DNA of 63,966 nucleotides, filler included, from Acidimicrobiia bacterium (GTDB lineage Bacteria > Actinomycetota > Acidimicrobiia > Spongiisociales > CAZKJJ01): the NCBI GenBank assembly GCA_046759765.1. It is 5 parts of 5 records of this genome, joined end to end, with 100 filler letters (N's around TTAATTAATTAA, not from the genome) between each part and the next. Parts side by side here need not be neighbours in the genome. Positions count along the whole stretch, not along the records: positions 14,458 to 28,621 come from JBHICV010000055.1; 4 more parts are not named here. One strand, written 5' to 3'. The translations under genes were made by a program, and so were the position numbers. Shown here piece after piece: positions 14,234-28,621 of the stretch; positions within the stretch are counted from its first letter, which is position 1; every line of letters begins with the position of its first letter. The notes beneath the pieces were generated by a model. It was given only the letters and a program-made list of their open reading frames with translations. It searched no databases and was not told where the DNA came from.

Positions 14234-14282
14234 GTTCCTGTCAATCGGCGCGTCGCTTTCCGACGCGGGCATTGACACGAAC
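14234..14282. repeat. 49-bp palindromic element (TGTCAAT type)
   Basis: Arms GTTCCTGTCAAT / ATTGACACGAAC around a 25-bp spacer with inner stem CGCGTCG/CGACGCG. Confidence 0.7.
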
Positions 14283-14457: not shown

Positions 14458-14812
14458 GACCCTGTTCGTCGACGCTCCCAAGGGCTCGGAGATCCTTTCC
14501 AGTGAGGTGTTCGGTCCTGTGCTCACCCTCCAGACCTTCAGGGACGAAGGAGAGGCCATCGAGATCGCCAACAGCACCACCTACGGCCTCGCTGCCATTC
14601 TCTACACCGGCGACCACGAGCGGTCCGAGCGGGTCTCTGGCCGGTTGACGGCCGGCACCGTGTGGGTGAACTGCTTCTACGTGCGTGACCTGCGAGCGCC
14701 CTTTGGTGGCTCTCGTAACAGCGGCGTCGGAAGGGAAGGCGGCAACTGGAGCTTCGACTTCTACGCCGACGTGAAAAACACCGTCAGCTCCCCGGAACAC
14801 TGGTCGGACTGA
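14458..14812 (+). CDS. Aldehyde dehydrogenase C-terminus (hydroxymuconic-semialdehyde dehydrogenase-like), 5' truncated
   Basis: EVFGPV, YGLAA, GTVWVNCFYVRDLRAPFGG..SGVGREGG. Confidence 0.88.
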
Positions 14813-14820
14813 AGTCTGAG

Positions 14821-14869
14821 GTTTCTGTCAATCTCAGTACCGCCTGGCGGCATTTCGATTGACAGAAAC
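14821..14869. repeat. 49-bp palindromic element (TGTCAAT type); may also act as a terminator between convergent genes
   Basis: Perfect 13-bp inverted repeat GTTTCTGTCAATC / GATTGACAGAAAC with inner CCGCC-T-GGCGG. Confidence 0.75.
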
Positions 14870-14879
14870 GCGGGTGGCC

Positions 14880-15455
14880 TTAGCCCAGCACCTGCTCCAT
14901 CGCCGTGAACGAGCCCAGGAGGGCGCTTCTCTGATCGGGATAGAGCCTTACGTATATCCGCTTGGGGGGGAACGCGGTGATGACCTCGGAGGCTCCGATC
15001 AGCTCGGTCTCGGCCCTCCAGACGTTGGCTTCTCGACGGAGCTCGTAGCGCTTGAAGTCCAGCTCTATCAGCGCTCGCTCGAACCCCTTGTTCGTAATGA
15101 GGCGGTCGACGGCCTCTGTGAAGGCGGCGTCGCCCTCCTTGACGACGGCCTCGACGCCGGTTCTTTTGAGCCGGCCGGTGTTGCGCAGTACGGCATGACC
15201 TGAGCGACCCTCCGGAGCAGGCATCGAGTAGCCGAACACCACCACCGTGATGTGTCCGAGGAAGTTCTTGATGACATCTTCGTGAACGTCGAAAGAGGGG
15301 AGCCCGCCTCCCTTAGTTAAAAAGCGCCCCCGATTGGGGCTTGCGAGCTCCAATTCGTGTTGCCGTAGATCGACCGCTATCCGGGAAAGCAGCTTCCCCG
15401 GCCGGTACGACCGGGGAAGCTTTCCTTTTCCTAGGAACCGGGCAACCGAGTTCAC
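14880..15455 (-). CDS. DUF3156-like protein associated with the APC permease
   Basis: YRPG near the N-terminus, LDFKR, GASEV...YVRL. Start overlaps the permease stop. Confidence 0.6.
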   Translation of the reverse strand: MNSVARFLGKGKLPRSYRPGKLLSRIAVDLRQHELELASPNRGRFLTKGGGLPSFDVHEDVIKNFLGHITVVVFGYSMPAPEGRSGHAVLRNTGRLKRTGVEAVVKEGDAAFTEAVDRLITNKGFERALIELDFKRYELRREANVWRAETELIGASEVITAFPPKRIYVRLYPDQRSALLGSFTAMEQVLG

Positions 15456-16918
15456 ATGCCCTCGGGTGCCTCCGCCATTCCCTCCTCTGCCAGGAACGTC
15501 TCAGGCTCCTCGGGTTTCCACGGATTCTGCTTCTGTACGAAGTACGTCCAGATCAAGGCATAGATCGCCGATGCCCCGAGCATGATCCCGAACGGGATGT
15601 ATATGTCGCTCCGGGTCAGACCGGGCGGAGCTATGTACCAGAACGCGATCACTAGTCCGATCGTGGCCAGGATCTGCGGCAACGGGTACAGAGGAGTCTT
15701 GTACGGACGATCGATATCGGGCCGCCGAGCCCGCAGCGCGACAATCGAGATGTTGATCAACACGTAGCTGAAGATCCACGCCCCGACCGCGGCCAGAATG
15801 AGCTGGATGATCGATGCGACATCCCCGTCACGCACCAAGTCGATGTATAGGGTCCCAAGAATCGGAAGGAGCCCTACCAGGGCAATTCCGACCCAAGGCT
15901 CCCGAAAGCGGGGGTGCAGGTAGCCAAACACCGAGGGAACAGTGCCGTCCTTGGCCATCCCGTACAAGATCCGCGGGATGCTGGCCAGCACCGTGTTCAG
16001 AGTCGCCGCGGCGGCGAAAAGCACCGCAATGCCCAGCCAGTAGCGGCCGAAGGTTCCGAAGATCTCCTCGGCAAACAGCGGGATCGCTATTGGTGTGTCG
16101 AGAATCGCTTCCCCGGTATCCGGATCCAGCACTTCGTTCTCGACCTGCCGGGCGATGGCAGCTCCATATATGAACATCGCGAAGCCGACCGCCGTAACCC
16201 CGATATACATCGCTCTCGGGATCGTTCTGGCCGGCTCTCTGACCTCGGCTGCGAGCGGTACCACGTACTCCATCCCCACGTACAGGAACAACGCCAATGC
16301 CACCATCGACAAGATGTTCTCCAGGTTCACCGGAAACACCGGGTCGCCGAAGAAGCCGGTGATGCTCGTCTGCTTGGCGCTGAATATGCCCACCAGGCTG
16401 AACAGCACGAGCGTGCCCCACATGGCAATCGTCAGGCCGATCTCGACGCTGCCGTAGACGCGGATGCCAAGGGCGTTGACGAGGGCCAGGATGACCACCA
16501 GGCCCACACCGATCCACCAGTTGCCGGTCAGCGAGAAGTTCTCCAGATCGCCGAAGTTGGCTCGGGCGAAGATGCCCGCGGCCGCCGCCTCTGCACTGCC
16601 CGCAAACACGTCGACCAGGAGATACGCCGCCAATGTCCCGGTGATCGCAAAGAACCGCCCCATGCCCGAGGCGATGTAGTCATACACCGAGCCTGCCGTC
16701 GGCAGAATCGCCGATCCCTCCGCGAAGCTGGCCGACTGGGCAATCATCAACACATAGGCGATCACTACCGCAATGGCGAAGACGTAACCCCCGGCGCCAT
16801 AGCCGACAGTCGCCGACAGGAGCACCGAGCTCGCGATAATGAGCCCGACCGTCGTTGCTAGGGCAGTGGGAAAGCCGACTGCTCCCCGTTCTAGCGTTAC
16901 ATCGCCACCGTTTGCCAT
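15452..16918 (-). CDS. APC-family amino acid/amine permease
   Basis: About 12 TMs, PRILYGMAKDG, RPYKTPLYP. ATG at 16918 with GGAGG RBS. Confidence 0.92.
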   Translation of the reverse strand: MANGGDVTLERGAVGFPTALATTVGLIIASSVLLSATVGYGAGGYVFAIAVVIAYVLMIAQSASFAEGSAILPTAGSVYDYIASGMGRFFAITGTLAAYLLVDVFAGSAEAAAAGIFARANFGDLENFSLTGNWWIGVGLVVILALVNALGIRVYGSVEIGLTIAMWGTLVLFSLVGIFSAKQTSITGFFGDPVFPVNLENILSMVALALFLYVGMEYVVPLAAEVREPARTIPRAMYIGVTAVGFAMFIYGAAIARQVENEVLDPDTGEAILDTPIAIPLFAEEIFGTFGRYWLGIAVLFAAAATLNTVLASIPRILYGMAKDGTVPSVFGYLHPRFREPWVGIALVGLLPILGTLYIDLVRDGDVASIIQLILAAVGAWIFSYVLINISIVALRARRPDIDRPYKTPLYPLPQILATIGLVIAFWYIAPPGLTRSDIYIPFGIMLGASAIYALIWTYFVQKQNPWKPEEPETFLAEEGMAEAPEGM

Positions 16919-17122
16919 TCGAACCACCTCCCACCGCCCGGCCCGCCCGAGCGGCCTGCGATCGAACCTAGCAGTCGGTTTTCGCGCTCGTCTTGGAAAG
17001 TGGAGGTTTCGAAGAGCACAGTGAGTGGTGCCGGACGCGCTCCAAGTGGGGGCCTGCCGGTCGGACCTCGAGCCGGCGGCCTCCCTAGACTCGATCGCCA
17101 CCGGATCACAGGAGGAGCCCAA

Positions 17123-18406
17123 GTGCTGAGCGAGGAATATCACCGGCTTCGGGTGCTGTGGCCCGATCACCTGGGCCTCGCCCGCGGAAAGTACCTGCCC
17201 CGCGACTATGCCGAGCGAACCAATCACTGCATCACGCTGTTCGCGCTCGGCTACGACCGGGATATGACGCCGAATCCGGGCTCCTACTTTTTCGAGGGCA
17301 TGCCCGATTGCGAGGCCGTCTACGACATTTCTGAGGCCCGCAAGGGCTGGGAGGAAGGCACCGCGGTCGCGGTGGCGGACATCTTCAAGGACGGCAAGCC
17401 GGTAGAGCTCGCCCCGCGGACCGTGTTACAGCGGGCCGTGGCCGACTGGGAAGAGCTCGGATTTACCCCGCAGGTGGGCTTCGAGTTCGAGGCCTTCCTC
17501 TTCGAGCCCGACGGCGACGGCGGGTGGATCCCAATCGACACTCCCGGCGCCTACGTGTATGGAACCGGTACCGCGGTGGACCCGGCCGGCGTATTCGACG
17601 ACGTAATGGTGGCGTGTGACGAGGTCGGGATCCCGCTCGAGGCGATCAACAGCGAATACGACAACGGGCAGTTCGAGCTGACGATCGCCTATGGAGATGC
17701 GACTGAGGCAGCTGACCACGCTTTTCTGTTCAAGGTGATGGCTCGGGAGATCGCCCATCGCAAGGGCTACCTGTGCACCTTCATGGACAAGCCGATCCCG
17801 GACCGGGGCGGCAGTGGGACGCACGTAAACCTGAGCCTGGCCAAGGACGGCGTGAATCTCTTTGTCGACGAGTCGGCGTCGGACGGCATCTCGGACCTCG
17901 CCAAGCGTTGCATCGCCGGGCTTGTTGCCCACCACGAGGGCATGGCGGCGATACAAGCTCCGACTGTCAACAGCTACCGGAGGCTCCGACCTGGACAACT
18001 GTCGGGCTATTGGGCCAACTGGGGCTACGACCACCGCGGGGTAGCGGTTCGGGTTCCGCCGGATCGAGACGCGAGGACTCGCCTAGAACATCGGCTTGGC
18101 GGCGCCTCCTGCACTCCTCACCAGGCGGCGGCGGCGACGCTCCAGGCGGCTCGGCTCGGCTATGTCAACGAGCTGGACCCGCCCGAGGCCGAGACGCAGG
18201 ACTGCCTCGAGAACGTGAGCACCGATCGGTCCGTGGCGCGGGACTTCGCAGCGGCACTCGACGAGCTGGAGGCGGACAAGGAGTTTGTCGAAGCGTTCAG
18301 CCCCGACTTCGTGGCCGCCTTCACGGTGATCAAGCGAGCCGAGTGGGAGCGGTTCCGTGGCTACACGACTGATTGGGAGCTCAACGAATACCTCCACTTC
18401 CTCTAG
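17123..18406 (+). CDS. Glutamine-synthetase-family gamma-glutamyl ligase (PuuA-like)
   Basis: DHLGLARGK, FEFEAFL, EYDNGQFE, GSGTHVN, NSYRRL, LEHR. GGAGGA RBS before GTG. Confidence 0.9.
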   Translation: MLSEEYHRLRVLWPDHLGLARGKYLPRDYAERTNHCITLFALGYDRDMTPNPGSYFFEGMPDCEAVYDISEARKGWEEGTAVAVADIFKDGKPVELAPRTVLQRAVADWEELGFTPQVGFEFEAFLFEPDGDGGWIPIDTPGAYVYGTGTAVDPAGVFDDVMVACDEVGIPLEAINSEYDNGQFELTIAYGDATEAADHAFLFKVMAREIAHRKGYLCTFMDKPIPDRGGSGTHVNLSLAKDGVNLFVDESASDGISDLAKRCIAGLVAHHEGMAAIQAPTVNSYRRLRPGQLSGYWANWGYDHRGVAVRVPPDRDARTRLEHRLGGASCTPHQAAAATLQAARLGYVNELDPPEAETQDCLENVSTDRSVARDFAAALDELEADKEFVEAFSPDFVAAFTVIKRAEWERFRGYTTDWELNEYLHFL

Positions 18407-18415
18407 GCGGCGGCG

Positions 18416-19591
18416 GTGACGATCGGAGAGACCGTAACCCTCGAGGACCTGGAGGCTGACCCCAACCCGATCCTTTCGCGGCTGCGGGGGGAGGAACCCG
18501 TTAGCTACATCGCCTCGATGCAGATGTGGCTCGTGACCCGCTGGGACGACATCGAATACGTCGAGGACCATCCGGAGCTGTTCACGGCGGCCACCGTGCC
18601 GTCGTTCCTGGCCCGGACTCTGGGCTCGAACATGCTGACGGTCGACCCGCCGGAGCACACGCGGATCAAGGAGGCGATGCTGCCGCCATTTCAGCCCGGC
18701 GGCTACAGCGGTTCCTACGCACGGGGGATGCTGCCGGCCATCTGTGACGAGCTCATCGATGGCTTCTTCGAACAGGGTGAGGTCGAGATCATGGAGGCAT
18801 ACGCCGCTCCGGTGAGCACCATCTCGCTCAAGACCGCTCTGGGGCTCGACAACGTCACCTGGCAGCAGCTGTGGGCATGGTGCGAGGGCCTGATCACCGA
18901 TCTGGCCAACTTCGAGGACGATCCCGAGCTGAAGGCGATTGGGGAGAAGACGAAGTCGGAGCTAGGTGCCGCTCTCCAATCCCGGATGGAGGAGTTGCGG
19001 GAGATTGCCGACGACTCGGCCCTTTCGCACATGCTGACCGAGGCGGAGAAGGGAAATCTCTCGGAGGAGGAGATCGTCAACAACGTCCGCCTGATGATCT
19101 CGGGCGGGATCAACGAGCCCCGAGACGGGATCGGGCTCGTGGCCTGGGTGCTGCTCACCGTCCCCGGTCTCAGGGGAGAAGTCGAGGGCAGCCCTCGTCT
19201 GTGGACAAGGCTCGTCGAAGAGGTGTTTCGCCTTTACAGCCCGGTCGGGACGATTACCCGCATGGCTACCCAGGACGTGGAGATCGGGGGAGTCACGATT
19301 CCTGAGGGAGCTCTAGTGGCCGGCGTTCTGCGGTCCGCCAATCTGGACGAGGACCACTGGGAACGACCGAACGAGTTCGATATCGGCCGGCGGGAAGGCC
19401 AGCACGCGGCCTTTGCCCTCGGCGTTCATCGTTGTTTAGGCGAGTGGCTCGGACGGCAAGAGGTCAGAGTCGGCACGCAGAAGCTCTTCGAGCGGCTCCC
19501 CGGATTGAGACTCCATCCCGACGAGACCGTGGAGCTGCACGGCTTCGAGTTCCGGGGCCCTCACTCCCTCCGTCTCCAATGGGACGTTTAA
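18416..19591 (+). CDS. Cytochrome P450 with atypical I-helix (GGINEP)
   Basis: ExxR (EVFR), heme motif FALGVHRCLG, C-terminal FRGPHSL. Confidence 0.95.
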   Translation: MTIGETVTLEDLEADPNPILSRLRGEEPVSYIASMQMWLVTRWDDIEYVEDHPELFTAATVPSFLARTLGSNMLTVDPPEHTRIKEAMLPPFQPGGYSGSYARGMLPAICDELIDGFFEQGEVEIMEAYAAPVSTISLKTALGLDNVTWQQLWAWCEGLITDLANFEDDPELKAIGEKTKSELGAALQSRMEELREIADDSALSHMLTEAEKGNLSEEEIVNNVRLMISGGINEPRDGIGLVAWVLLTVPGLRGEVEGSPRLWTRLVEEVFRLYSPVGTITRMATQDVEIGGVTIPEGALVAGVLRSANLDEDHWERPNEFDIGRREGQHAAFALGVHRCLGEWLGRQEVRVGTQKLFERLPGLRLHPDETVELHGFEFRGPHSLRLQWDV

Positions 19592-19606
19592 GGAAGGTCC
19601 GCCCTC

Positions 19607-19715
19607 GTTTTGGTGACGTCAATCCACCCTATGGGTGAGTACGCGTCACGAAAACAAGGCCCTCCGGTTCTTGTGACGTGAACCCACCGTATGGGTGAGT
19701 AGGCGTCACCAAAAC
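19607..19715. repeat. Tandem pair of 49-bp palindromes (19607-19655, 19667-19715)
   Basis: GTTTTGGTGACG...CGTCACGAAAAC, 11-bp spacer, GTTCTTGTGACG...CGTCACCAAAAC. Confidence 0.93.
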
Positions 19716-19760
19716 CAGAGGGGTATTGAGTTGGGTGGCTAAGAGTGGTCTTCTTCCGTT

Positions 19761-20723
19761 GTGGCGGATGCCGACCGAGTTGTCGCCGAGTTGGCTGCCC
19801 AGCAGGCGGGTGCCTTTTCATATGGGCAAGTGCGGGCAGTCGGATTCTCGGATCGCATGATCGAGCATCGGATTCGAAACGGTCGATGGCGCCGGCTGGA
19901 GAAGAGCGTGTTTGCTGTCGCGGGGACTCCGGATACCCATGAACAGCACCTCTTCGTGGCGGCTCTCGCTGCAGGCCCGGGCGGTGCGATTTCACACCGA
20001 ACGGCAGCCGAGCTTCACGGAATTGGCCGCTTCAGGCAACCGATTGAGATCATCACTCCCCGTCCACGCCGATATCGGACCGCCCATGTGATCGTCCACA
20101 CGTCGAAGAAACTCGGGCCCATCGACATCGAGCTTCATGACCAGCTGCCCGTCACCACGGTTGCTCGAACGCTCATCGACTTAGGAGCCGTTGTGCATCC
20201 GGACAGGGTCGAGGACGCCCTCGATGTGGCCCTTCGGGAGCGGTTGGTGGCATTGGGTGAGCTGAAGAGGCGACTCACGGCTCTGCGGAAGAGCGGACGC
20301 GGCGGCACAGGTGTCATGGCAGACATCCTGGAGCGGAGGGATCCAGCCTCCATGCCAGAGAGCCGCTACGAGCGCCTCTTTTTGCGTGCGATCGAGATGG
20401 CGGGGCTTCCGCTTCCAGAGTTGCAGGTGGAAATCCGGGACGGGGAGCGATTTCTCGGACGAGTCGACGCGGCCTGGCCGGAGCGACGACTGGCAGTGGA
20501 AGTCGATGGCCACCGATTCCACGCAACCCGAAAGCAGCGCGCGGCCGATGCAACTCGCGAAAACGCGATCAAGCTCGCAGGCTGGCGGGTCCTCCGCTTC
20601 ACGACCGATCAGGTGTGGCAAGAGCCTGCGTGGGTAGCTCGTACGATTGCCAAGGCGCTGGGTCACGGTGCCCAGTCGTTTCCACCCCCGGGTTTTAGTG
20701 ACGCCTATCCACCGTATGTGTGA
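19761..20723 (+). CDS. AbiEi-like wHTH + DUF559 (Vsr-like PD-(D/E)XK nuclease) protein
   Basis: N-terminal LAAQQAGAF, ISHRTAAELHG, TTVARTLIDL. C-terminal ESRYE, RVDAAWP..LAVEVDG..FH..D..R..GWRVLRFT. Confidence 0.88.
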   Translation: MADADRVVAELAAQQAGAFSYGQVRAVGFSDRMIEHRIRNGRWRRLEKSVFAVAGTPDTHEQHLFVAALAAGPGGAISHRTAAELHGIGRFRQPIEIITPRPRRYRTAHVIVHTSKKLGPIDIELHDQLPVTTVARTLIDLGAVVHPDRVEDALDVALRERLVALGELKRRLTALRKSGRGGTGVMADILERRDPASMPESRYERLFLRAIEMAGLPLPELQVEIRDGERFLGRVDAAWPERRLAVEVDGHRFHATRKQRAADATRENAIKLAGWRVLRFTTDQVWQEPAWVARTIAKALGHGAQSFPPPGFSDAYPPYV

Positions 20724-20800
20724 GTACGCGTCACCAAAACGAGGCCCTCCTGTTCTTGTGACGTGAACCCACCGTATGGGTGAGTAGGCGTCACCAAAAC
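20692..20800. repeat. Tandem pair of 49-bp palindromes (20692-20740, 20752-20800)
   Basis: Direct repeat of 19607-19715. Second unit identical to 19667-19715; first unit differs from 19607-19655 at 6 of 49 positions. Confidence 0.93.
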
Positions 20801-20832
20801 GAGAGACGGCAACGGAAGTACCATCCCCGGAC

Positions 20833-21624
20833 ATGCCCGAAGTCAAGGGGTTTTTCTATCCCCGAACCGCCACCGGTCGGTCGTCGATCGTGCCGGGGCC
20901 GCCCTGGCACTACTCGGGGGACGTGCTGACCATCGAGTACCGCACTGACCCGGACCGAGTGGCGGAGCTGCTGCCGGACCCCCTGGAACCAGCGGACGAT
21001 CCGGGGGCGGTAGCCGTTGTGTTCGCCGACTGGCAGTCGTGCTCGGACACCTTTGAGGAGCTGCTCGACCCCGTTCGCTCTCAATACAAGGAATGCTTCA
21101 TCGTGATCCGGTGCCGGTACGGCGGCGAGACCTACTCGCGCTGCGTGTACATATGGGTGGACAAGGACTTCGCGCTCGTGCGTGGCCAGCACCAGGGATA
21201 TCCGAAGAAGCTGGGCGAGATCGACATGACCAGGCCCGTCACGGTGGGCAAGGCCGGCCCGCGACTCGAGAAGGGCGGGACGTTCGGCGCCACCCTCTCG
21301 AGCGCCGGAAGGAGGCTGATCGACGCCCGATTCACCATCACGGGACCCTCGGGCGATGCCGGGTTCGTCAACGCCCTGCCCATGCTCCATCACCGCTGGT
21401 TCCCGGCAATCGAGTCCGACGGGACCGATTCCATGCACGAGCTGGTGACCATGCGCGGCTATGACGCCGAAGCCGGACCGGCCTACACAGGCGAGGCAGA
21501 GATCGAGCTGCACGCCTCCCCCGTGGAGGAGCTGACCGCGCTCGAACCGAGGGACATGATCGGCGGTTACTGGCGCAGCGTCGCGACGTCGTGGCGAGAG
21601 GGAACCACCCTCGAGCGGAGCTGA
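20833..21624 (+). CDS. Acetoacetate decarboxylase-family protein
   Basis: PGPPWHY, QYKEC, Schiff-base Lys motif GYPKKLG. Confidence 0.88.
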   Translation: MPEVKGFFYPRTATGRSSIVPGPPWHYSGDVLTIEYRTDPDRVAELLPDPLEPADDPGAVAVVFADWQSCSDTFEELLDPVRSQYKECFIVIRCRYGGETYSRCVYIWVDKDFALVRGQHQGYPKKLGEIDMTRPVTVGKAGPRLEKGGTFGATLSSAGRRLIDARFTITGPSGDAGFVNALPMLHHRWFPAIESDGTDSMHELVTMRGYDAEAGPAYTGEAEIELHASPVEELTALEPRDMIGGYWRSVATSWREGTTLERS

Positions 21625-21705
21625 GAGCTCCGACCCGGCGGCCCGCCGACCGCTTGGGCCACCACCAATCTGGCGTATTCTTCGTTCAACGAGACGGAGT
21701 GATGT

Positions 21706-22581
21706 ATGGGTGAAGTCGTAGGCGCGGGGCTCGTTTCGCACGTTCCGACTCTCATGTTCGATGAGAATCAGCGAAGAGCCCTCAACGAAGGCAAGGAAAT
21801 CAGCCTGGTTCCCGGTATGCACCGGCTGCGGAACGAGGCGCTGGATCGGCTCGAGCCGGACACCATCGTTATCTTCGACACCCACTGGTTCTCTACCGTT
21901 GAGCATCTGATCAGCTCGCATGCCCAGCTGCAAGGAAAGTTCACCTCGACGGAGCTGCCCAGGGGCATGGCTGGCATTCCCTACGACTATCCGGGCGATC
22001 CCGAGCTAGCCAACTTGACCGCCCAGATAGGCAACCAGCTCGGAACACCGACCACCGCCACGGACGATCCGTACCTGGCCCTCTTCTACGCCACCGTCAA
22101 TCTCGTTCATTACCTCCGCAAGGACGAGAAGGTGGTTTCGGTCAGCGTGTGTCAGACCGGTGAACCAGACGACTTCCTGACCTTGGGGGCCGCCGTAGGA
22201 GAGGCCGTCAGCCGTATCGAGAGGGATGTCGTCCTCTTGGCCTCAGGCGGTATGAGCCACAAGTTCTGGCCGCTCAAGCAGATACCCAAGCACGAGGCAT
22301 CCGACCCCGTTCACATCATCAGTCCCGAGGCGAGAGCCGCCGACGAGCACCGGATCGAGCTGATGAAGCAGGGCCGGCACAAAGACATCATCCAGTTGAT
22401 GGACGATTACATGGAGCATGACCCAGAGGGACGCTTCGGTCACTATCTGATGATGGTCGGTGCGATCGGCGGGGAAGAGTGCACTGCCCCCGGCGAGCTC
22501 TACTCCGACTACGAGAATGCCACCGGCACCGGCCAGGTCCACGTCTGGTTCGACAAGCCGGAAGGAGGCTGGACCAGCTAG
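21706..22581 (+). CDS. LigB/HpaD-type extradiol ring-cleavage dioxygenase
   Basis: SHVP, DTHW, YPGDPELA, SGGMSH, GHY, GTGQ. Confidence 0.88.
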   Translation: MGEVVGAGLVSHVPTLMFDENQRRALNEGKEISLVPGMHRLRNEALDRLEPDTIVIFDTHWFSTVEHLISSHAQLQGKFTSTELPRGMAGIPYDYPGDPELANLTAQIGNQLGTPTTATDDPYLALFYATVNLVHYLRKDEKVVSVSVCQTGEPDDFLTLGAAVGEAVSRIERDVVLLASGGMSHKFWPLKQIPKHEASDPVHIISPEARAADEHRIELMKQGRHKDIIQLMDDYMEHDPEGRFGHYLMMVGAIGGEECTAPGELYSDYENATGTGQVHVWFDKPEGGWTS

Positions 22582-22590
22582 GCGTCCGGG

Positions 22591-23226
22591 TCAGCGGCCG
22601 CGCCGCCACCAGCGGTCGTAGACGCCCATCCACCGCGAGCGAGGAGCGGCGCCAGCCGGCTCCGATGGCGAGGCAGCGCCCTTAACCTCCGCCAGCTCAC
22701 CGCGGAGCTCAGCCATCCGCTCACGGAGAAACTGTGCCTCGGTCTCCGCCCGGGCGGCGCGTTCCCGAGCCTCGGCCAGCTGACGTCCTGCCTCGTGGAG
22801 ATTGCCGAGCTGGTTCAGCATCTTGTTCCAGGCATCAATCGGAACGATCATCGCCCCCTCCGGCACGCGCTGATCCCGCGGCGTCCCTAGAGGAGTCCGC
22901 GCCGGGGGAGAGGGCGGTCGCGAGGCGACCGGCTCGGGCATCAAAGCCGGCGGCGGGGCCTGGCTGCGCTGCTGGACCCGCCCGATGACCTCGTCGAGTG
23001 CCACCAGCCGTCGCGGGCGATTGCCCGTTAGGTCGAGCTGACTCTCGACGTGACCCTCGCGGGCCCAATAACGGAGTGTCGATACGGGTACACCCGTCTG
23101 CTCGTGGGCCTCCCGGATGGTGACCCATCCGATCCGCTCGGGGGCTGTTGAGGGCCCGGCGGGCTGGTCGGGGGACCGCCGCTCTTGCGATGGCAGCGGT
23201 CGACTACCGGTTGCCGGCTGCGTCAT
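22591..23226 (-). CDS. MerR-like HTH / coiled-coil protein
   Basis: VTIREAHEQTGVPVSTLRYWAREG HTH and a C-terminal coiled coil. Divergent from the BMC operon. Confidence 0.6.
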   Translation of the reverse strand: MTQPATGSRPLPSQERRSPDQPAGPSTAPERIGWVTIREAHEQTGVPVSTLRYWAREGHVESQLDLTGNRPRRLVALDEVIGRVQQRSQAPPPALMPEPVASRPPSPPARTPLGTPRDQRVPEGAMIVPIDAWNKMLNQLGNLHEAGRQLAEARERAARAETEAQFLRERMAELRGELAEVKGAASPSEPAGAAPRSRWMGVYDRWWRRGR

Positions 23227-23306
23227 ACCCCTCCCCCTTTGGGCGGCCCATCATACGACGGCCTTCCGGAGGGCACCTCTAGGATCTGCGGGACGAGGGG
23301 AGGGAC

Positions 23307-23879
23307 GTGCCTTCGACAGAAGAGGTACGCGAGCTGGTCCGCGCGATCGTGGAAGGCGTGGCCACCGACCCGGAAGAGTCCGATCCCGAGCCTGGCGAAG
23401 AGACTCCGCGCAGCTCCGTCCCGACCGTCGCGATTGGTGCTGATCACGGCGGCTTTCCACTCAAAGAGCGCATCGGATTTCTCCTCAAGGAACAGGGTTA
23501 CGAAGTCACCGACGTCGGTACCGGAAGCCGTGAATCGGTGGACTATCCGGACTTCGCCCACAAGGTCGCCGAGCTTGTGGCTTCTCAGTCCTGCGACGTG
23601 GGAATAATCATCGATGGAGCCGGAATCGGCTCCGCGATGGTGGCCAACAAGGTTCCCGGAGTGAGAGCGGCGCTCTGCTATGACGTGTCTTCGGCGAAAA
23701 ACAGCCGGGAGCACAACCACGCTAATGTCCTGACGCTCGGTGCCGGTCTCATCGGGGAGCACCTCGCCTGGCAGATCGTCGAGGTCTGGCTCGCCACTCC
23801 GTGGGGGGAGGGCCGACATGCCCGGCGCGTTGGGAAGATCATCGACATCGAGCGGGCATACGCAAAGGGCACGGAGTGA
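23307..23879 (+). CDS. rpiB: Ribose-5-phosphate isomerase B family with N-terminal encapsulation peptide
   Basis: [37 protein letters not shown]. Amphipathic N-helix [14 protein letters not shown]. Confidence 0.9.
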
Positions 23880-24733
23880 TGGCGACCAGAGAGGATCTCG
23901 TTGACGCGATAACGCGTGAGGTCCTGCTGGTACTCGCTTCTGAGGGTGGGGACTGCCCCAACTGTGACGGCAGCTGCGCCGCTCACAACCCCGACCGCGT
24001 GCGGGCGGTCGTTGCCACCGGCGCCGAACGGATCAGCTTCAACGGATCGGCGCCGGCCGTTCCCGCCGACCTGGCCCACTACATAGATCACACGCTGCTG
24101 CGCCCCGAGGTATCGGCGGCGGAGATCGACCAGCTGTGCCAAGAAGCCCGCGAGTTCGGATTCGCCACGGTGTGCGTCAACCCCGTCTGGGTTCGCAGAT
24201 GCGCGGACAACTTGAAGGGATCAGAGGTAAAGGTCTGCTCAGTGGTCGGGTTCCCTTTCGGAGCCACCACGCCGGAAGTGAAGGCGTGGGAGGCTCGGCG
24301 GGCGATCCGGGACGGTGCCCGCGAGATCGACATGGTGATCAACATCGGCGCACTGAAGAGCGGCGACCTCGACCTAGTTCGAGAGGACATCTCCAAAGTC
24401 GTCGACGCTTGTCACGAAGCTGGAGTCCGCTGCAAGGTGATCATCGAGGCGGCGCTGCTCACGGATGAGGAGAAGGTGATCGCCTCCCATCTGACCAAGC
24501 AGGCCAGGGCCGACTTCGTAAAGACCTCGACGGGGTTTGGACCCGGCGGCGCCACGGTTCACGACGTACTGCTGATGAGCGAGACCGTCGGGCCAACAGT
24601 GGGTGTCAAAGCGGCGGGAGGTATTCGGTCGCAGGAGGATGTCGAAGACATGATCGCCGCCGGAGCCACTCGCATCGGGGCCTCCGCCGGGGTCGCCATC
24701 GTCGGGGGAGGCGAGGGCCATGAACGGTATTGA
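23879..24733 (+). CDS. deoC: Deoxyribose-phosphate aldolase with N-terminal extension
   Basis: IDHTLL, VGFPFG, EIDMV, VKTSTGF, VKAAGGI. N-terminal [12 protein letters not shown] helix. Confidence 0.95.
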
Positions 24734-25349
24734 TCTCCGGTCATACATCTTCCTGGACAGCCTGCAACCGCAATACGCCGCCTTCCTCGGGACAGTGGCG
24801 CAAGGCTTCCTGCCTCTCGCGGGCGACGCCTCCCTCTATGTCGAGATAGCACCAGGGATCGAGATCAACCGTCTGACCGACGTCGCCCTGAAGTCCACGA
24901 CGGTCAAACCGGGCATGCAGATCATCGAGAGGTACTACGGCCTGCTGGAGGTGCACTCGCCGGACCAGGCGGAAACCCGAGCAGCCGGAGAGGCGATTCT
25001 CTCGGACATCGGGCTCGGCGAGACGGACCGCATGAAGCCACGTATCGTCTCGTCCCAGATCATCAGACGGATCGACGACCATCAGGCGCAGCTGATCAAC
25101 CGGCAGCGCCACGGGCAGATGTTGATACCCGGCCAAACTCTCTACGTGATGGAGGTAGAGCCCGCAGCCAACGCTCCGCTCGCAGCCAACGAGGCGGAGA
25201 AAGCCGCCGAGATAAACGTCCTCGAAGTCAGGGCGTTTGGCTCGCTGGGACGTGTCTACCTTGGTGGCGAAGAGCGGGACATCGATGTGGGCTGGCAGGC
25301 GGCAGTATCGGCCGTGGAAGGATTGGAAGGACGGGAGATGCCGGGGTAA
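24720..25349 (+). CDS. BMC-T shell protein (CcmP/CsoS1D-like double-stacking type)
   Basis: [40 protein letters not shown]. Confidence 0.9.
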
Positions 25350-25376
25350 GAACCCCGGAGTGAGGAAGGGAGCCAA

Positions 25377-25685
25377 ATGGCAGAAGCACTCGGGATGATC
25401 GAGACCCGCAGCTTTGCAGCCTCAGTCGAGGCGGCGGACGCAATGGTGAAGGCTGCCAAGGTGGAGCTGGTCTCCTATGAGGAGACCGGCGGCGGCTACG
25501 TCACGACGGTGGTACGGGGCGACGTAGCGGCGGTCCGAGCTGCGGTGGACGCGGGTGTCCGAGGCGCCGAACGTGTGGGTGAGGTCATCGCTTCGCACGT
25601 CATCGCGCGGCCGCACGTCAACATCGACGTTGTGCTTCCCCTGGGTCGTGCCGACGAGGCTCGCGAAGAGGGCGAAGGGTCTTAG
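25377..25685 (+). CDS. BMC-H hexamer shell protein (EutM/PduA-like)
   Basis: ALGMIET...[10 protein letters not shown]...RGDVAAV...HVIARPH. Confidence 0.96.
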
Positions 25686-25694
25686 AGGCTCACC

Positions 25695-25982
25695 GTGCTG
25701 CTTGGGCGCGTAGCTGGCACGCTCGTCGCCAGCCGTAAGGAGCCGAGAATGGAGGGGCTCAAGCTCCTCGTTCTCCGCCAAGTCGACGCGCACAACGACG
25801 ATACGGACAGCTATGTGGTGGCAGTCGATGTGGTTGGCGCCGGAGTGGGCGAGGTTGTTCTATATGCGCAGGGCAGCGCGGCGCGCCAGACGGAGATCAC
25901 CCATGAAAGACCGTGTGACGCAGTGATTATGGCCATCGTCGACACTTGGGAGCTGGGCGGCGACGAGATCTACAAGAAATAG
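25695..25982 (+). CDS. BMC-P pentamer (EutN/CcmL family)
   Basis: [35 protein letters not shown]. Confidence 0.95.
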
Positions 25983-25984
25983 CG

Positions 25985-27448
25985 ATGAACGATCTCACTG
26001 AAGCGGACATCCAGGACATCATCGAGAGGGTCCGGCTCCGGTTGCGCGAAGCCGGGGACGGCAGGCCTGGTCTAGCGGTCGAGGCTGCCGAGCAGGTCGA
26101 GGCCGCCGCAGAAGCGGAGTACCGCGACGGCATCTTCCGAACGATCGACGAGGCAGTGGCGGCGGCCAAGCAGGCCTTTCAGGCCTACTCGGTGATGGGG
26201 CTCGATCGGCGTCGGACGATCATCGACTCGGTCCGCCAGTCCATGCTTGCGCACGGCGAGCAGCTGGCGCGGATGGCACACCAGGAGACGGGGCTTGGCC
26301 GCTGGGAAGACAAAGTCATGAAGAACCGGCTCGTCACCACCAAGACACCGGGTCCCGAGGACCTTGAAACGACGACGGTGACCGGCGACCAGGGAATGAT
26401 GGTGACCGAGTGGGCTCCCTTCGGCATCATCGCCGCCATCACCCCGACGACCAACCCGACATCGACCATCATCAACAACGCGATCTCGACCCTGTCCGCC
26501 GGCAACGCGGTCGTCTTCAATGTGCACCCCAATGCCAAGACCACCTCGGCCGAGAACGTTCGTCTTCTCAATCAAGCCATTACGGCGGCCGAAGGACCCC
26601 CCAATCTCGTCACCGCCATCCCTAACCCGACGATCGAAAGCGCGCAGGAGCTGATGCACCATCAGGATGTCAACGTCCTGTTGGTTACGGGCGGGCCAGG
26701 CGTCGTCCGCGAGGCTCTCAAGACGGACAAGCGAGCGATAACGGCTGGGCCGGGAAACCCTCCGGTCGTTGTCGATGAAACGGCCGAGATTCCCAAAGCC
26801 GCCCGCGATGTGGTTCTGGGAGCGTCCTTCGACAACAACATCGTCTGCACCGACGAGAAGGAGGTTTTCGTAGTCGACACGGTCGCCGATCGCTTCCTTC
26901 GTGAGATGGTGGAGAACGACTGCTATCTGCTGAAAGAGCACGAGCTGCGCCGTCTGGAGAGGGTCATCTTCCACGAGCTGGGCGAACCCTCCCGGCCAGG
27001 CGTCATCAACACTTCCTGGATCGGAAAGAACGCCGGCGTGATCTTGAGCGAGATCGGCATCAATGTCGGAGACGATGTCAGGTTGGCGGTTGCCGACGTT
27101 CCGAGAGAGCACTCGCTGGTGTGGACAGAGCAAATGATGCCGGTACTGCCGGTCGCTCGCGTCCCGGATGCAGAGACTGCCATGGAGCTATCGGTGCGAG
27201 CCGAGCACGGGTTCCGCCACACGGCATCTATCCACTCCACCAACGTCGAGCGCATCACTCGGATGGCCAGAATGATGAACTGCTCGATTTTCGTCGCCAA
27301 CGCGCCCAACTACTCAGGATTGGGCGAAGGAGGAGAGGGCTTTACGTCATATTCGATCGCCAGCCCGACCGGAGACGGGCTGACCAGGCCGCGGACTTTC
27401 TCCCGTGAGCGGCGCATTGCTGTCGTCGGCGCGCTAAGAATCGTCTGA
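25985..27448 (+). CDS. CoA-acylating aldehyde dehydrogenase (EutE/PduP-like) with encapsulation peptide
   Basis: PTTNPT, TGGPGVV, AGPGNPP, SFDNNIVCTDEKE, TGDG. N-helix DIQDIIERVRLRL. Confidence 0.93.
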   Translation: MNDLTEADIQDIIERVRLRLREAGDGRPGLAVEAAEQVEAAAEAEYRDGIFRTIDEAVAAAKQAFQAYSVMGLDRRRTIIDSVRQSMLAHGEQLARMAHQETGLGRWEDKVMKNRLVTTKTPGPEDLETTTVTGDQGMMVTEWAPFGIIAAITPTTNPTSTIINNAISTLSAGNAVVFNVHPNAKTTSAENVRLLNQAITAAEGPPNLVTAIPNPTIESAQELMHHQDVNVLLVTGGPGVVREALKTDKRAITAGPGNPPVVVDETAEIPKAARDVVLGASFDNNIVCTDEKEVFVVDTVADRFLREMVENDCYLLKEHELRRLERVIFHELGEPSRPGVINTSWIGKNAGVILSEIGINVGDDVRLAVADVPREHSLVWTEQMMPVLPVARVPDAETAMELSVRAEHGFRHTASIHSTNVERITRMARMMNCSIFVANAPNYSGLGEGGEGFTSYSIASPTGDGLTRPRTFSRERRIAVVGALRIV

Positions 27449-28032
27449 TGGCCCAGCCGGCGCTGGCGCTGCTGGAGTTCGACTCGGTTGCGGTTGGGAT
27501 CGAGGCCGGAGACGCGATGGTCAAACGAGGCCCGGTCGAAGTCCTGTTGGCGGGCACCGTCCAACCGGGAAAGTACCTCGTCCTGGTCGCCGGCGAGGTG
27601 GGGGACGTTGAAGAGGCCGTCGAGGCCGGCACTGTCGTCGGCGGTCCCCATCTCGTGGACGAAGTCCTCCTACCCGACGTCCACCCGGCAGTGGTCGACG
27701 GTGCCCGTGGATCGCGCCACGAAGGATCAGGCGAGGCACTTGGAGTAATTGAGACCACGAGCGTCGCCGGCGTACTCGACGCGGCCGATGCGGCGATGAA
27801 AGGGGCAGATGTCACACTCCAGGAGCTCCGCATGGCCGACGGCCTCGGTGGGAAGGGTTACGCCCTGTTTCGAGGCATCGTATCCGAGGTGGAGGCCGCG
27901 GTTGGCTATGGGGTCGAGCGGATCTCCGCCGACCAGCTGGAGCAGTCGGCCATCATCTCCCAGCTTCACGATGAGATGAGAGAGAACCTGCTGGCCGAGG
28001 CAAGATTCAACCCGCGAGTCCGGGAGGAATAG
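27448..28032 (+). CDS. BMC-T shell protein (PduT-like)
   Basis: Tandem BMC domains: LALLEFDS..GDAMVK..PGKY and LGVIET..ADAAMK..GLGGK. Confidence 0.9.
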   Translation: MAQPALALLEFDSVAVGIEAGDAMVKRGPVEVLLAGTVQPGKYLVLVAGEVGDVEEAVEAGTVVGGPHLVDEVLLPDVHPAVVDGARGSRHEGSGEALGVIETTSVAGVLDAADAAMKGADVTLQELRMADGLGGKGYALFRGIVSEVEAAVGYGVERISADQLEQSAIISQLHDEMRENLLAEARFNPRVREE

Positions 28033-28033
28033 G

Positions 28034-28315
28034 TTGCAGCTCGGACGAGTGGAGGGCACGGTTGTCGCCACGGAGAAGGCACGGGGACTGGAAGGAATCA
28101 AGTTCCTGATCGTCCAGCCGCTCGACAAACAGAGACGGCCCAAGGGCGAACACGTGGTGGCTGCGGACGCAGTTCAGATGGCAGGCCCGGGCGACCTCGT
28201 GTACGTGGTGGCGGCGAGAGAGGCATCCCAGGCTTTACCCGATACCTTCGTCCCGGTTGACCATGCGGTGGTCGGAATCGTCGATGCGGTTTCCTCCCTC
28301 GGGGAGCCGCAATGA
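28034..28315 (+). CDS. BMC-P pentamer (EutN/CcmL family)
   Basis: GRVEGTVVATEK, VAADAV, AGPGD, PVDHAVVGIVD. Confidence 0.92.
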   Translation: MQLGRVEGTVVATEKARGLEGIKFLIVQPLDKQRRPKGEHVVAADAVQMAGPGDLVYVVAAREASQALPDTFVPVDHAVVGIVDAVSSLGEPQ

Positions 28316-28593
28316 AGATCGGCAGGGTGGCCGGAACCGTCGTCTCGACGATCAACTCCCCGGTCTTCGACGGGAGAAGGCTGCTCCTCTGCGATCTGTT
28401 GGACCCTTCCAGTACGCCCACGGGGGACTACACGATTGCGGTCGACGCCGTCGGTGCAGGAGCGGGAGAGGAAGTGCTGATCATCGACGAGGGAAACTCT
28501 GCGCGTCAGGTGGTCGGAATGGATCCCGCCCCGATCAGAGCAGTGGTCGTAGGCATCATTGACCAGATCGACCTGGAGGCGGCGGGCCTTTGA
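28312..28593 (+). CDS. BMC-P pentamer (EutN/CcmL family)
   Basis: GRVAGTVVST, AVDAVGAGAGE, EGNSAR, VVGIID. Confidence 0.93.
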   Translation: MKIGRVAGTVVSTINSPVFDGRRLLLCDLLDPSSTPTGDYTIAVDAVGAGAGEEVLIIDEGNSARQVVGMDPAPIRAVVVGIIDQIDLEAAGL

Positions 28594-28621
28594 CAGACAT
28601 CACAGTCTGGACGTATCCCTG

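Follow-up and report, generated by a model that had tools for sequence, protein, structure and literature searches.

Analysis of a 63,966-nt window of Acidimicrobiia bacterium DNA, i.e. the whole stretch considered here, which consists of joined contigs of a metagenome-assembled genome (GCA_046759765.1; 2.73 Mb, 308 contigs, 92% complete; labelled G000), revealed a gene for a protein that combines an AbiEi-type module with a DUF559 nuclease domain and that is bracketed on both sides by members of a dispersed family of 49-bp palindromes. The association between this gene and these palindromes is specific and recurrent, gene and repeat co-vary across genomes, and the fold of the protein is that of a DNA-binding module joined to a nuclease-like domain. 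From these features we infer that the protein may bind, cut or spread its palindromes. The reading that we favour, with moderate confidence, is that the palindromes constitute a repeat family resembling the repetitive extragenic palindromic (REP) sequences and that the bracketed gene encodes their family-specific DNA-binding nuclease, which would bind the repeats, regulate its own expression through them, cut and copy them, and at times be moved along with them.

The gene and the palindromes around it (the cassette) lie within a single 14,164-bp contig, at 14458-28621 of the window, and comprise the following features:

19602-19720, plus strand: upstream doublet, composed of unit 1 (19607-19655) and unit 2 (19667-19715) with an 11-nt spacer, ending 45 nt before the GTG start codon
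19761-20723, plus strand: AbiEi-DUF559 gene, an open reading frame for a 320-residue protein, with the TGA codon at 20721-20723
20687-20805, plus strand: downstream doublet, composed of unit 3 (20692-20740) and unit 4 (20752-20800)
19604-19618, no strand: left arm of the outermost 15-bp inverted repeat, perfect, with its partner at 20789-20803
20789-20803, no strand: right arm of the outermost 15-bp inverted repeat, perfect, with its partner at 19604-19618

The layout agrees with the original prediction, which was made from the sequence of the window and described two 49-bp units per side at a 60-bp period: the coordinates of all four units confirm this, the alignment agrees that units 2 and 4 are identical and shows 6 mismatches between units 1 and 3, the outer 15 bp read as a perfect inverted repeat, and the TGA of the gene falls inside unit 3. 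Taken together, the two doublets form a 119-nt direct repeat of 91% identity (19602-19720 versus 20687-20805), and the arms inside a given unit match imperfectly (1-2 mismatches in 12-13 positions). The unit pattern matches four times in the window, as compared with no match in 100 shuffles. Among the 210 pairs of doublets compared, the pair around the gene is the most similar (identity 0.927, against 0.862 for the runner-up), and 9 of its 11 spacer bases are common to both doublets, which argues that the two derive from one doublet by duplication or conversion. A scan of the interval from the upstream doublet to the start codon, blind to other promoter types, found no sigma-70-like promoter.

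The stretch is contained in four DNA sequencing runs, all from one study, and no RNA run is listed as containing it. Logan contigs from two samples span each of the junctions but end inside the identical unit 2/4, and because of these breaks they cannot phase the cassette. An assembly artefact is nevertheless disfavoured, since 12 other genomes show the same layout.

Palindrome families and their partner genes

The palindrome that brackets the gene, termed here family 1, is repeated throughout the genome. Its core, GTGACG-N25-CGTCAC, is present in 54-55 copies with exact arms, versus none for a control with the reversed pattern. With adjacent degenerate units included, there are 59 units at 36 loci, namely 23 tandem doublets and 13 single units; these units are defined by their arms, and a strict filter for self-pairing would keep only 12 of them. 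The arms are 12 bp long (GTTYTKGTGACG and its complement) and enclose an inner part of 25 nt that is able to pair with itself; in the consensus, an outer stem of 12 bp is followed by a middle region with loose pairing and, further in, by a short stem, CCACC/GGTG. Folded as DNA, the units have a mean energy of -12.2 kcal/mol, versus -3.9 in shuffles. According to a crude GC3-based gene call (GC3 being the GC content at third codon positions), no unit lies inside a called gene, and copies are often only a few bases away from a stop codon. The 36 loci are located between convergent genes in 12 cases, between tandem genes in 15 and between divergent genes in 5, with 4 at contig ends; over the whole genome, gene pairs are convergent in 19%, tandem in 62% and divergent in 19% of cases. 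Units of the same doublet are 0.65-0.96 identical (mostly 0.80-0.96), while doublets at different loci have a mean identity of 0.70. As partner units are more alike than units across loci, doublets seem to have been formed or homogenised locally, at a set distance. The 60-bp period is fixed and the 11-nt spacers within doublets are unrelated between loci (23 doublet loci, e.g. C2:47019-47127 and C37:13059-13167).

Other identities considered for these repeats were rejected. A search of Rfam for known RNAs gave just two chance-level matches, far under the gathering scores; a miniature inverted-repeat transposable element or insertion sequence was dismissed, as there is neither a transposase nor a target-site duplication; and integron cassettes with attC sites, which direct palindromic repeats around single genes had brought to mind, were dropped on layout, because the repeats are single or paired and form no array.

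Orthologues of the gene were detected in 9 of 401 genomes of the order by a single-protein search (E <= 1e-60), with one more found by a profile. A scan of species representatives yielded 80 loci, of which we analysed the 45 with a match covering most of the protein, excluding 35 partial matches; these 45 include 10 orthologues, 7 from genomes already counted and 3 new, which brings the total to 13 distinct orthologues. All 13 (42-57% identity) are flanked on both sides by the same type of palindrome. One of them comes from a genome flagged as unpublished (G004), and with this genome excluded the count is 12 of 12. The flanking copies share the arms GTTCTYGTG[A/T]CG, followed after 25 or 26 nt by the complement. 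The upstream copy ends approximately 34-56 nt before the aligned start (98 nt in G102), and the downstream copy either overlaps the stop codon or begins shortly after it. The 13 orthologues form one clade (SH-aLRT 98), and this type of palindrome was found beside none of the paralogues in two sets, of 8 and 35 proteins, respectively.

The distribution of the repeat follows that of the gene. When a stricter pattern was applied to the 401 genomes, 12 of them had at least 14 hits and the remaining 389 had at most 5; the flanked orthologue is present in 9 of the 12 repeat-rich genomes. Pairs of gene and repeat span six families of the order, although related genomes are not independent of each other, and over these six families the arms are conserved, while the inner 25 nt vary by lineage yet remain pairable. 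There is one copy of the orthologue per genome, and its gene neighbours are kept across genera in two families, which together argue for mostly vertical descent.

The genome possesses two AbiEi-DUF559 paralogues, and the second (36% identity), encoded on a different contig, has on its flanks two copies, 55 nt long and 85% alike, of another palindrome with GTTYCTGTCAAT arms, termed here family 2:

G000:C39 (L129 736-790 and 1736-1790): family-2 copies around the second paralogue

Family 2 (GTCAAT arms) has 56 copies in the genome, versus 1 in a shuffle. Paralogue-specific palindromes, suggested earlier as a check on the idea, are thus indeed present in this genome, with family 1 (59 units) and family 2 each flanking its own paralogue. 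Copies of family 2 are also present in the window, at 14234-14282 and 14821-14869 (cores 14240-14276 and 14827-14863). In the order as a whole, 12 of 16 paralogues (the second paralogue included) have flanking palindromic direct repeats of their own, with scores of 22-109 versus a null maximum of at most 16; among 35 distant paralogues, 6 scored at least 23, from other Actinomycetota and two Planctomycetota records. All arms start with a TTCT-like motif, and the proteins with GTCAAT-type and GCAAT-type flanking arms cluster together (SH-aLRT 95). Different protein clades thus correspond to different arms.

Relatives that lack the gene were found in the genus of G006, where G017 and G037 are without it at the syntenic site (L028/L029, syntenic with L016 1430-2496). 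G006 and G027 carry the nuclease gene at the place where G017 and G037 hold, within approximately 58 bp, a single hairpin of approximately 50 bp with TCGTCAATGC arms. The gene-less congeners retain 23 and 19 palindromes, versus 57 in G006, and the nearest-neighbour identity of their copies is 0.85 and 0.81, versus 0.90 in G006 (samples of 14, 9 and 11 units). Moreover, three orthologous palindromes compared in one of these congeners are altered in their arms, which are invariant elsewhere. The trend is in the direction expected if copies decay after loss of the gene, and may be taken as a weak indication of such decay.

The AbiEi-DUF559 protein

Pfam searches identified AbiEi_4 at residues 8-53 and DUF559 (PF04480) with 34.6 bits against a cut-off of 20.6, while MTES_1575, at 37.6 bits, remained just below its cut-off of 38.2. 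AbiEi models of PADLOC reach residues 3-190, with a match of 3.6e-35 over residues 3-180. Residues ~1-195 are predicted to form an AbiEi-type DNA-binding module and residues ~200-300 a DUF559/Vsr-like nuclease domain. An AlphaFold2 model calculated from 31 relatives has a mean pLDDT of 86.9. In Foldseek searches the first 200 residues of the protein matched the AbiEi antitoxin of Streptococcus agalactiae (6y8q; E 1.3e-6, TM-score 0.66, normalised by the target length) and also Rv2827c (1zel), and the last 100 residues matched the catalytic domain of the homing endonuclease I-Bth0305I (3r3p; TM-score 0.69-0.70) as well as Vsr (1cw0, 1vsr); in addition, a profile match to 3hrl was obtained over the last 100 residues (E 9e-4). 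The D...ExDGxxxH motif is conserved, and D236, E247, D249, H254 and D263 are invariant in 31 of 31 sequences. The C-terminal domain belongs to the DUF559 family, has a Vsr-like fold in the model, and is predicted to be catalytically active on DNA.

It had been claimed that the gene lacks an AbiEii partner and that no transposase or target-site duplication accompanies it, and both claims held. AbiEii (DUF1814, PF08843) had no match in the 92%-complete genome, whether beside the gene or at any other place. Likewise, Y1_Tnp (PF01797), the domain of the REP-associated tyrosine transposases (RAYTs), has no match in this genome, although control genomes gave matches, and no target-site duplication was found at the locus.

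Interpretation and comparison with known systems

As to the idea of a REP-like system with a DUF559 nuclease as its partner, the analysis upheld it as a partnership of gene and repeat, in view of the 13 of 13 flanked orthologues, the paralogue-specific families and the lack of a RAYT. In the mechanism that we propose, the AbiEi winged-helix module would bind the two inverted arms with one protomer per arm, as the symmetry of the site alone suggests. The upstream copy would serve as the operator of the gene, holding the level of the nuclease low, and the copy over the stop codon could be a second binding site or a terminator hairpin. The DUF559/Vsr-like domain would nick or cut the bound palindromes, and repair of the breaks, templated by other copies, would homogenise the copies and occasionally seed new ones or local tandem duplicates. 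Recombination between copies could then move the gene, together with one palindrome, among the repeat loci. With somewhat more reservation, we can envisage AbiEi-DUF559 proteins as a large unrecognised class of repeat-partner enzymes in Actinomycetota and beyond, in which each clade would read its own palindrome via a diversifying winged-helix module, and the Vsr-like nuclease would copy, homogenise and move palindromes along with the genes that they bracket. If true, this would be a transposase-free, nick-and-repair route to the spread of repeats, parallel to that of REPINs and RAYTs and of independent origin.

A number of observations speak against a REP-like repeat family maintained by the bracketed nuclease. 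The orthologue is present in G327 (86% complete), which has just 3 pattern hits, and G017, G037 and G346 (the last 72% complete) are rich in repeats with no orthologue detected. By a crude test, flanking repeats were not seen for 4 of the 16 close paralogues, nor for 29 of the 35 distant paralogues. RAYT genes are flanked by inverted repeats, and here most flanking copies are in direct orientation: of 12 pairs of flanks that could be scored, 9 scored higher as direct and 3 higher as inverted (1 more was not scorable), and two pairs are clearly direct (0.96 and 0.98, versus 0.67 and 0.74 as inverted); the weaker cases are ambiguous because the units are palindromes. The orientation of units with respect to transcription reveals no clear bias, with the same direction at 6 loci and the opposite one at 3. 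The hairpin at the G017/G037 site resembles family 2 and is not a clean solo copy of family 1, so that the site represents neither a clean excision nor a clean pre-insertion state, and the genomes compared offered no clean site empty of the nuclease gene. In the Logan contigs of the four runs, no contig joins across the gene, a result that is uninformative on excision. Finally, five ordinary genes of G006 (encoding DUF885, LiaF-like, GT2, EamA and 3-hydroxyacyl-CoA dehydrogenase proteins) are also bracketed by the family-1 palindrome, which means that, where repeats are abundant, being bracketed does not by itself set the nuclease gene apart.

Many of the features could also be accommodated by an autoregulated AbiEi-type regulator or architectural protein, for which the palindromes would be binding sites (a regulon, insulators, terminators or nucleoid sites), while the nuclease would have another role, e.g. 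in repair at stalled hairpins, and the repeats would spread otherwise. The upstream copy, which ends 45 nt before the start codon, is placed as expected for such a protein, as AbiEi homologues are described to bind to inverted repeats that lie upstream of the genes encoding them (PMC7319586); conservation of the 12-bp arms is what half-sites would show, the 60-bp period of doublets whose spacers are not conserved suggests that bound protein sets the distance, and the single gene copy per genome with neighbours kept in two families suggests vertical inheritance. However, the copies mainly occupy 3' gene ends and the spaces between convergent genes instead of promoter regions, and their number (3 to 57 in orthologue-bearing genomes) and lineage-varying inner part fit amplifying repeats better than a fixed regulon. 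Moreover, identical copies are present at separate loci of G006 and the nuclease residues are invariant, and on balance we regard this explanation as unlikely.

We attach a low probability to the possibility that the gene and one palindrome constitute a selfish nuclease cassette, which would enter palindromes already present, either through cleavage and repair of the homing type or through recombination, with the repeats being spread by something else. This would agree with the doublets around the gene being the most alike of the 210 pairs and having a common spacer, as integration at one doublet or its duplication would give, with the presence of the gene at different loci in different families, with its GC3 of 0.67 versus 0.78-0.85 for its neighbours, and with the resemblance of the catalytic domain to that of I-Bth0305I (TM-score 0.69-0.70). 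It would agree also with the palindrome-bracketed DUF885 gene, whose locus in G006 differs from that in G017 and which G037 lacks at that site. On the other hand, there is only one copy of the nuclease gene per genome, it has the same neighbours across genera in two families, the repeat-rich genomes coincide with the gene-bearing ones, G000 yielded no other candidate for spreading the repeats, such as a RAYT, and neither a clean empty site nor a gene-less contig was found. As for palindromes that merely gather in permissive intergenic spots with no functional link to the gene, or a cassette that is an assembly artefact, the ordinary G006 genes bracketed by palindromes could be quoted for the former and the breaks of Logan contigs in the identical unit 2/4 for the latter, but we find either very improbable. 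The 13 orthologues from six families are all flanked, including the one in the genome with only 3 hits, the two paralogues of one genome have each their own family, and, with 36 clusters in ~2,000 intergenic regions, simple arithmetic gives a chance of ~3 in 10,000 for palindromes on both flanks; contigs from two samples cover each junction. The flanking, second-family and tree results already largely refute the absence of a functional link.

Comparison of the proposed nuclease-palindrome partnership with REPtrons, i.e. REP sequences or REPINs and their RAYTs, reveals a common pattern (PMC3116915, PMC3337134, PMC3733652): short extragenic palindromes are spread in tens of copies, a gene present once has members of its own repeat family on either side, one genome can hold several such pairs, descent is largely vertical with losses here and there, and the repeats outlast the gene and seem to decay after its loss. 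The differences concern the enzyme, which here comprises an AbiEi winged-helix module and a DUF559/Vsr-like PD-(D/E)xK domain instead of an HUH Y1 transposase, and the repeats, which lack the GTAG tag (PMC3733652), the arms reading GTTYTKGTGACG, are longer (49 bp with 12-bp arms) and form tandem doublets with a 60-bp period instead of inverted REPINs. Besides, the host belongs to Actinomycetota, whereas the REPtrons compared are those of Proteobacteria. The layout works like that of a REPtron, but of the defining features the HUH transposase and the GTAG tag are missing, and the flanks are mostly direct.

The resemblance to the AbiE type IV toxin-antitoxin system consists in the AbiEi fold of the N-terminal 195 residues and in the reported binding of AbiEi to inverted repeats in its own promoter, upstream of its gene (PMC7319586). 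Here, by contrast, there is no match to the AbiEii toxin, a nuclease domain is present at the C-terminus, and the presumed binding site is dispersed genome-wide; because AbiEii is missing, the gene is not a member of an AbiE toxin-antitoxin pair. With Vsr, DUF559 and I-Bth0305I (1cw0, 3hrl, 3r3p) the protein shares the fold of residues ~200-300 and the D...ExDGxxxH motif, but no Dcm partner or CCWGG context, as for Vsr, was seen here, nor an intron or phage setting, with no intron matched in Rfam; the site in congeners holds a different hairpin. Unlike in Vsr and I-Bth0305I, an AbiEi module is joined to the domain, which is associated with a repeat family.

In the REPtron papers considered (PMC3116915, PMC3337134, PMC3733652), the enzymes described as partners of bacterial extragenic palindromes are RAYTs, tied to the GTAG class. 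CGTC-tagged REPs, according to the 2013 survey of tagged REPs, seem to be without a transposase of their own; they have 8-9-bp stems and 4-5-nt loops and were reported from Proteobacteria, Chlorobi, Bacteroidetes, Spirochaetes and Thermotogae, with Actinobacteria unmentioned in the main text (PMC3733652). They resemble the palindromes analysed here in having no known RAYT partner, but the survey gives no partner gene for them (PMC3733652), whereas for the present palindromes a partner is identified. No link of DUF559 or AbiEi-DUF559 proteins to dispersed palindromes was found in the literature searched, subscription journals and supplements being outside its scope.

Our results tie a very common, uncharacterised actinobacterial architecture (AbiEi and DUF559) to specific repeat families, by which the proteins gain a function that can be tested, and the repeats an enzyme that may make them; many repeat families are without a known partner, as is stated for the CGTC class in PMC3733652. 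The clade-specific 12-bp arms provide natural matched pairs of protein and DNA for a recognition code, and the system offers a handle on the origin of repeats and the reshuffling of genes in RAYT-less genomes.

Surroundings of the gene and palindrome-bounded segments

The neighbours of the cassette, both identified by Pfam searches, are outside the system:

18416-19591, plus strand: cytochrome P450 gene, left neighbour
20833-21624, plus strand: acetoacetate decarboxylase (ADC) family gene, right neighbour

As originally described, the cassette separates the P450 gene from the ADC gene, and the Pfam calls on both neighbours agree with this. In the window at 17000-22581 the genes for a glutamine-synthetase-like (GS-like) protein, P450, ADC and LigB are all oriented in one direction. 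The GS-like gene abuts that of ADC in three genomes of another family, and in the sole genome of the same family that was compared, a sigma/anti-sigma pair is located between them; given these arrangements in relatives, the P450 gene and the cassette are particular to this lineage at the site.

In the G006 genus we also found segments other than the nuclease gene that are bounded by family-1 palindromes. In G006 the DUF885 gene is located between two identical 49-bp palindromes (L130 3928-6027); in G017 it has another neighbourhood (L139), and in G037 it is absent from that site (L138 5421-5677), with one palindrome present there. This case suggests, from comparison of the loci, that palindrome-bounded segments may move. 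The four other bracketed genes of G006 are found at L134, L135, L136 and L137; by a rough estimate, approximately one such pair would be expected by chance. A 3.9-kb stretch of G006 (L131 3405-7296), present also in G017, is swapped for 43 bp in G037:C126, and one of the breaks of this replacement lies inside a family-1 palindrome.

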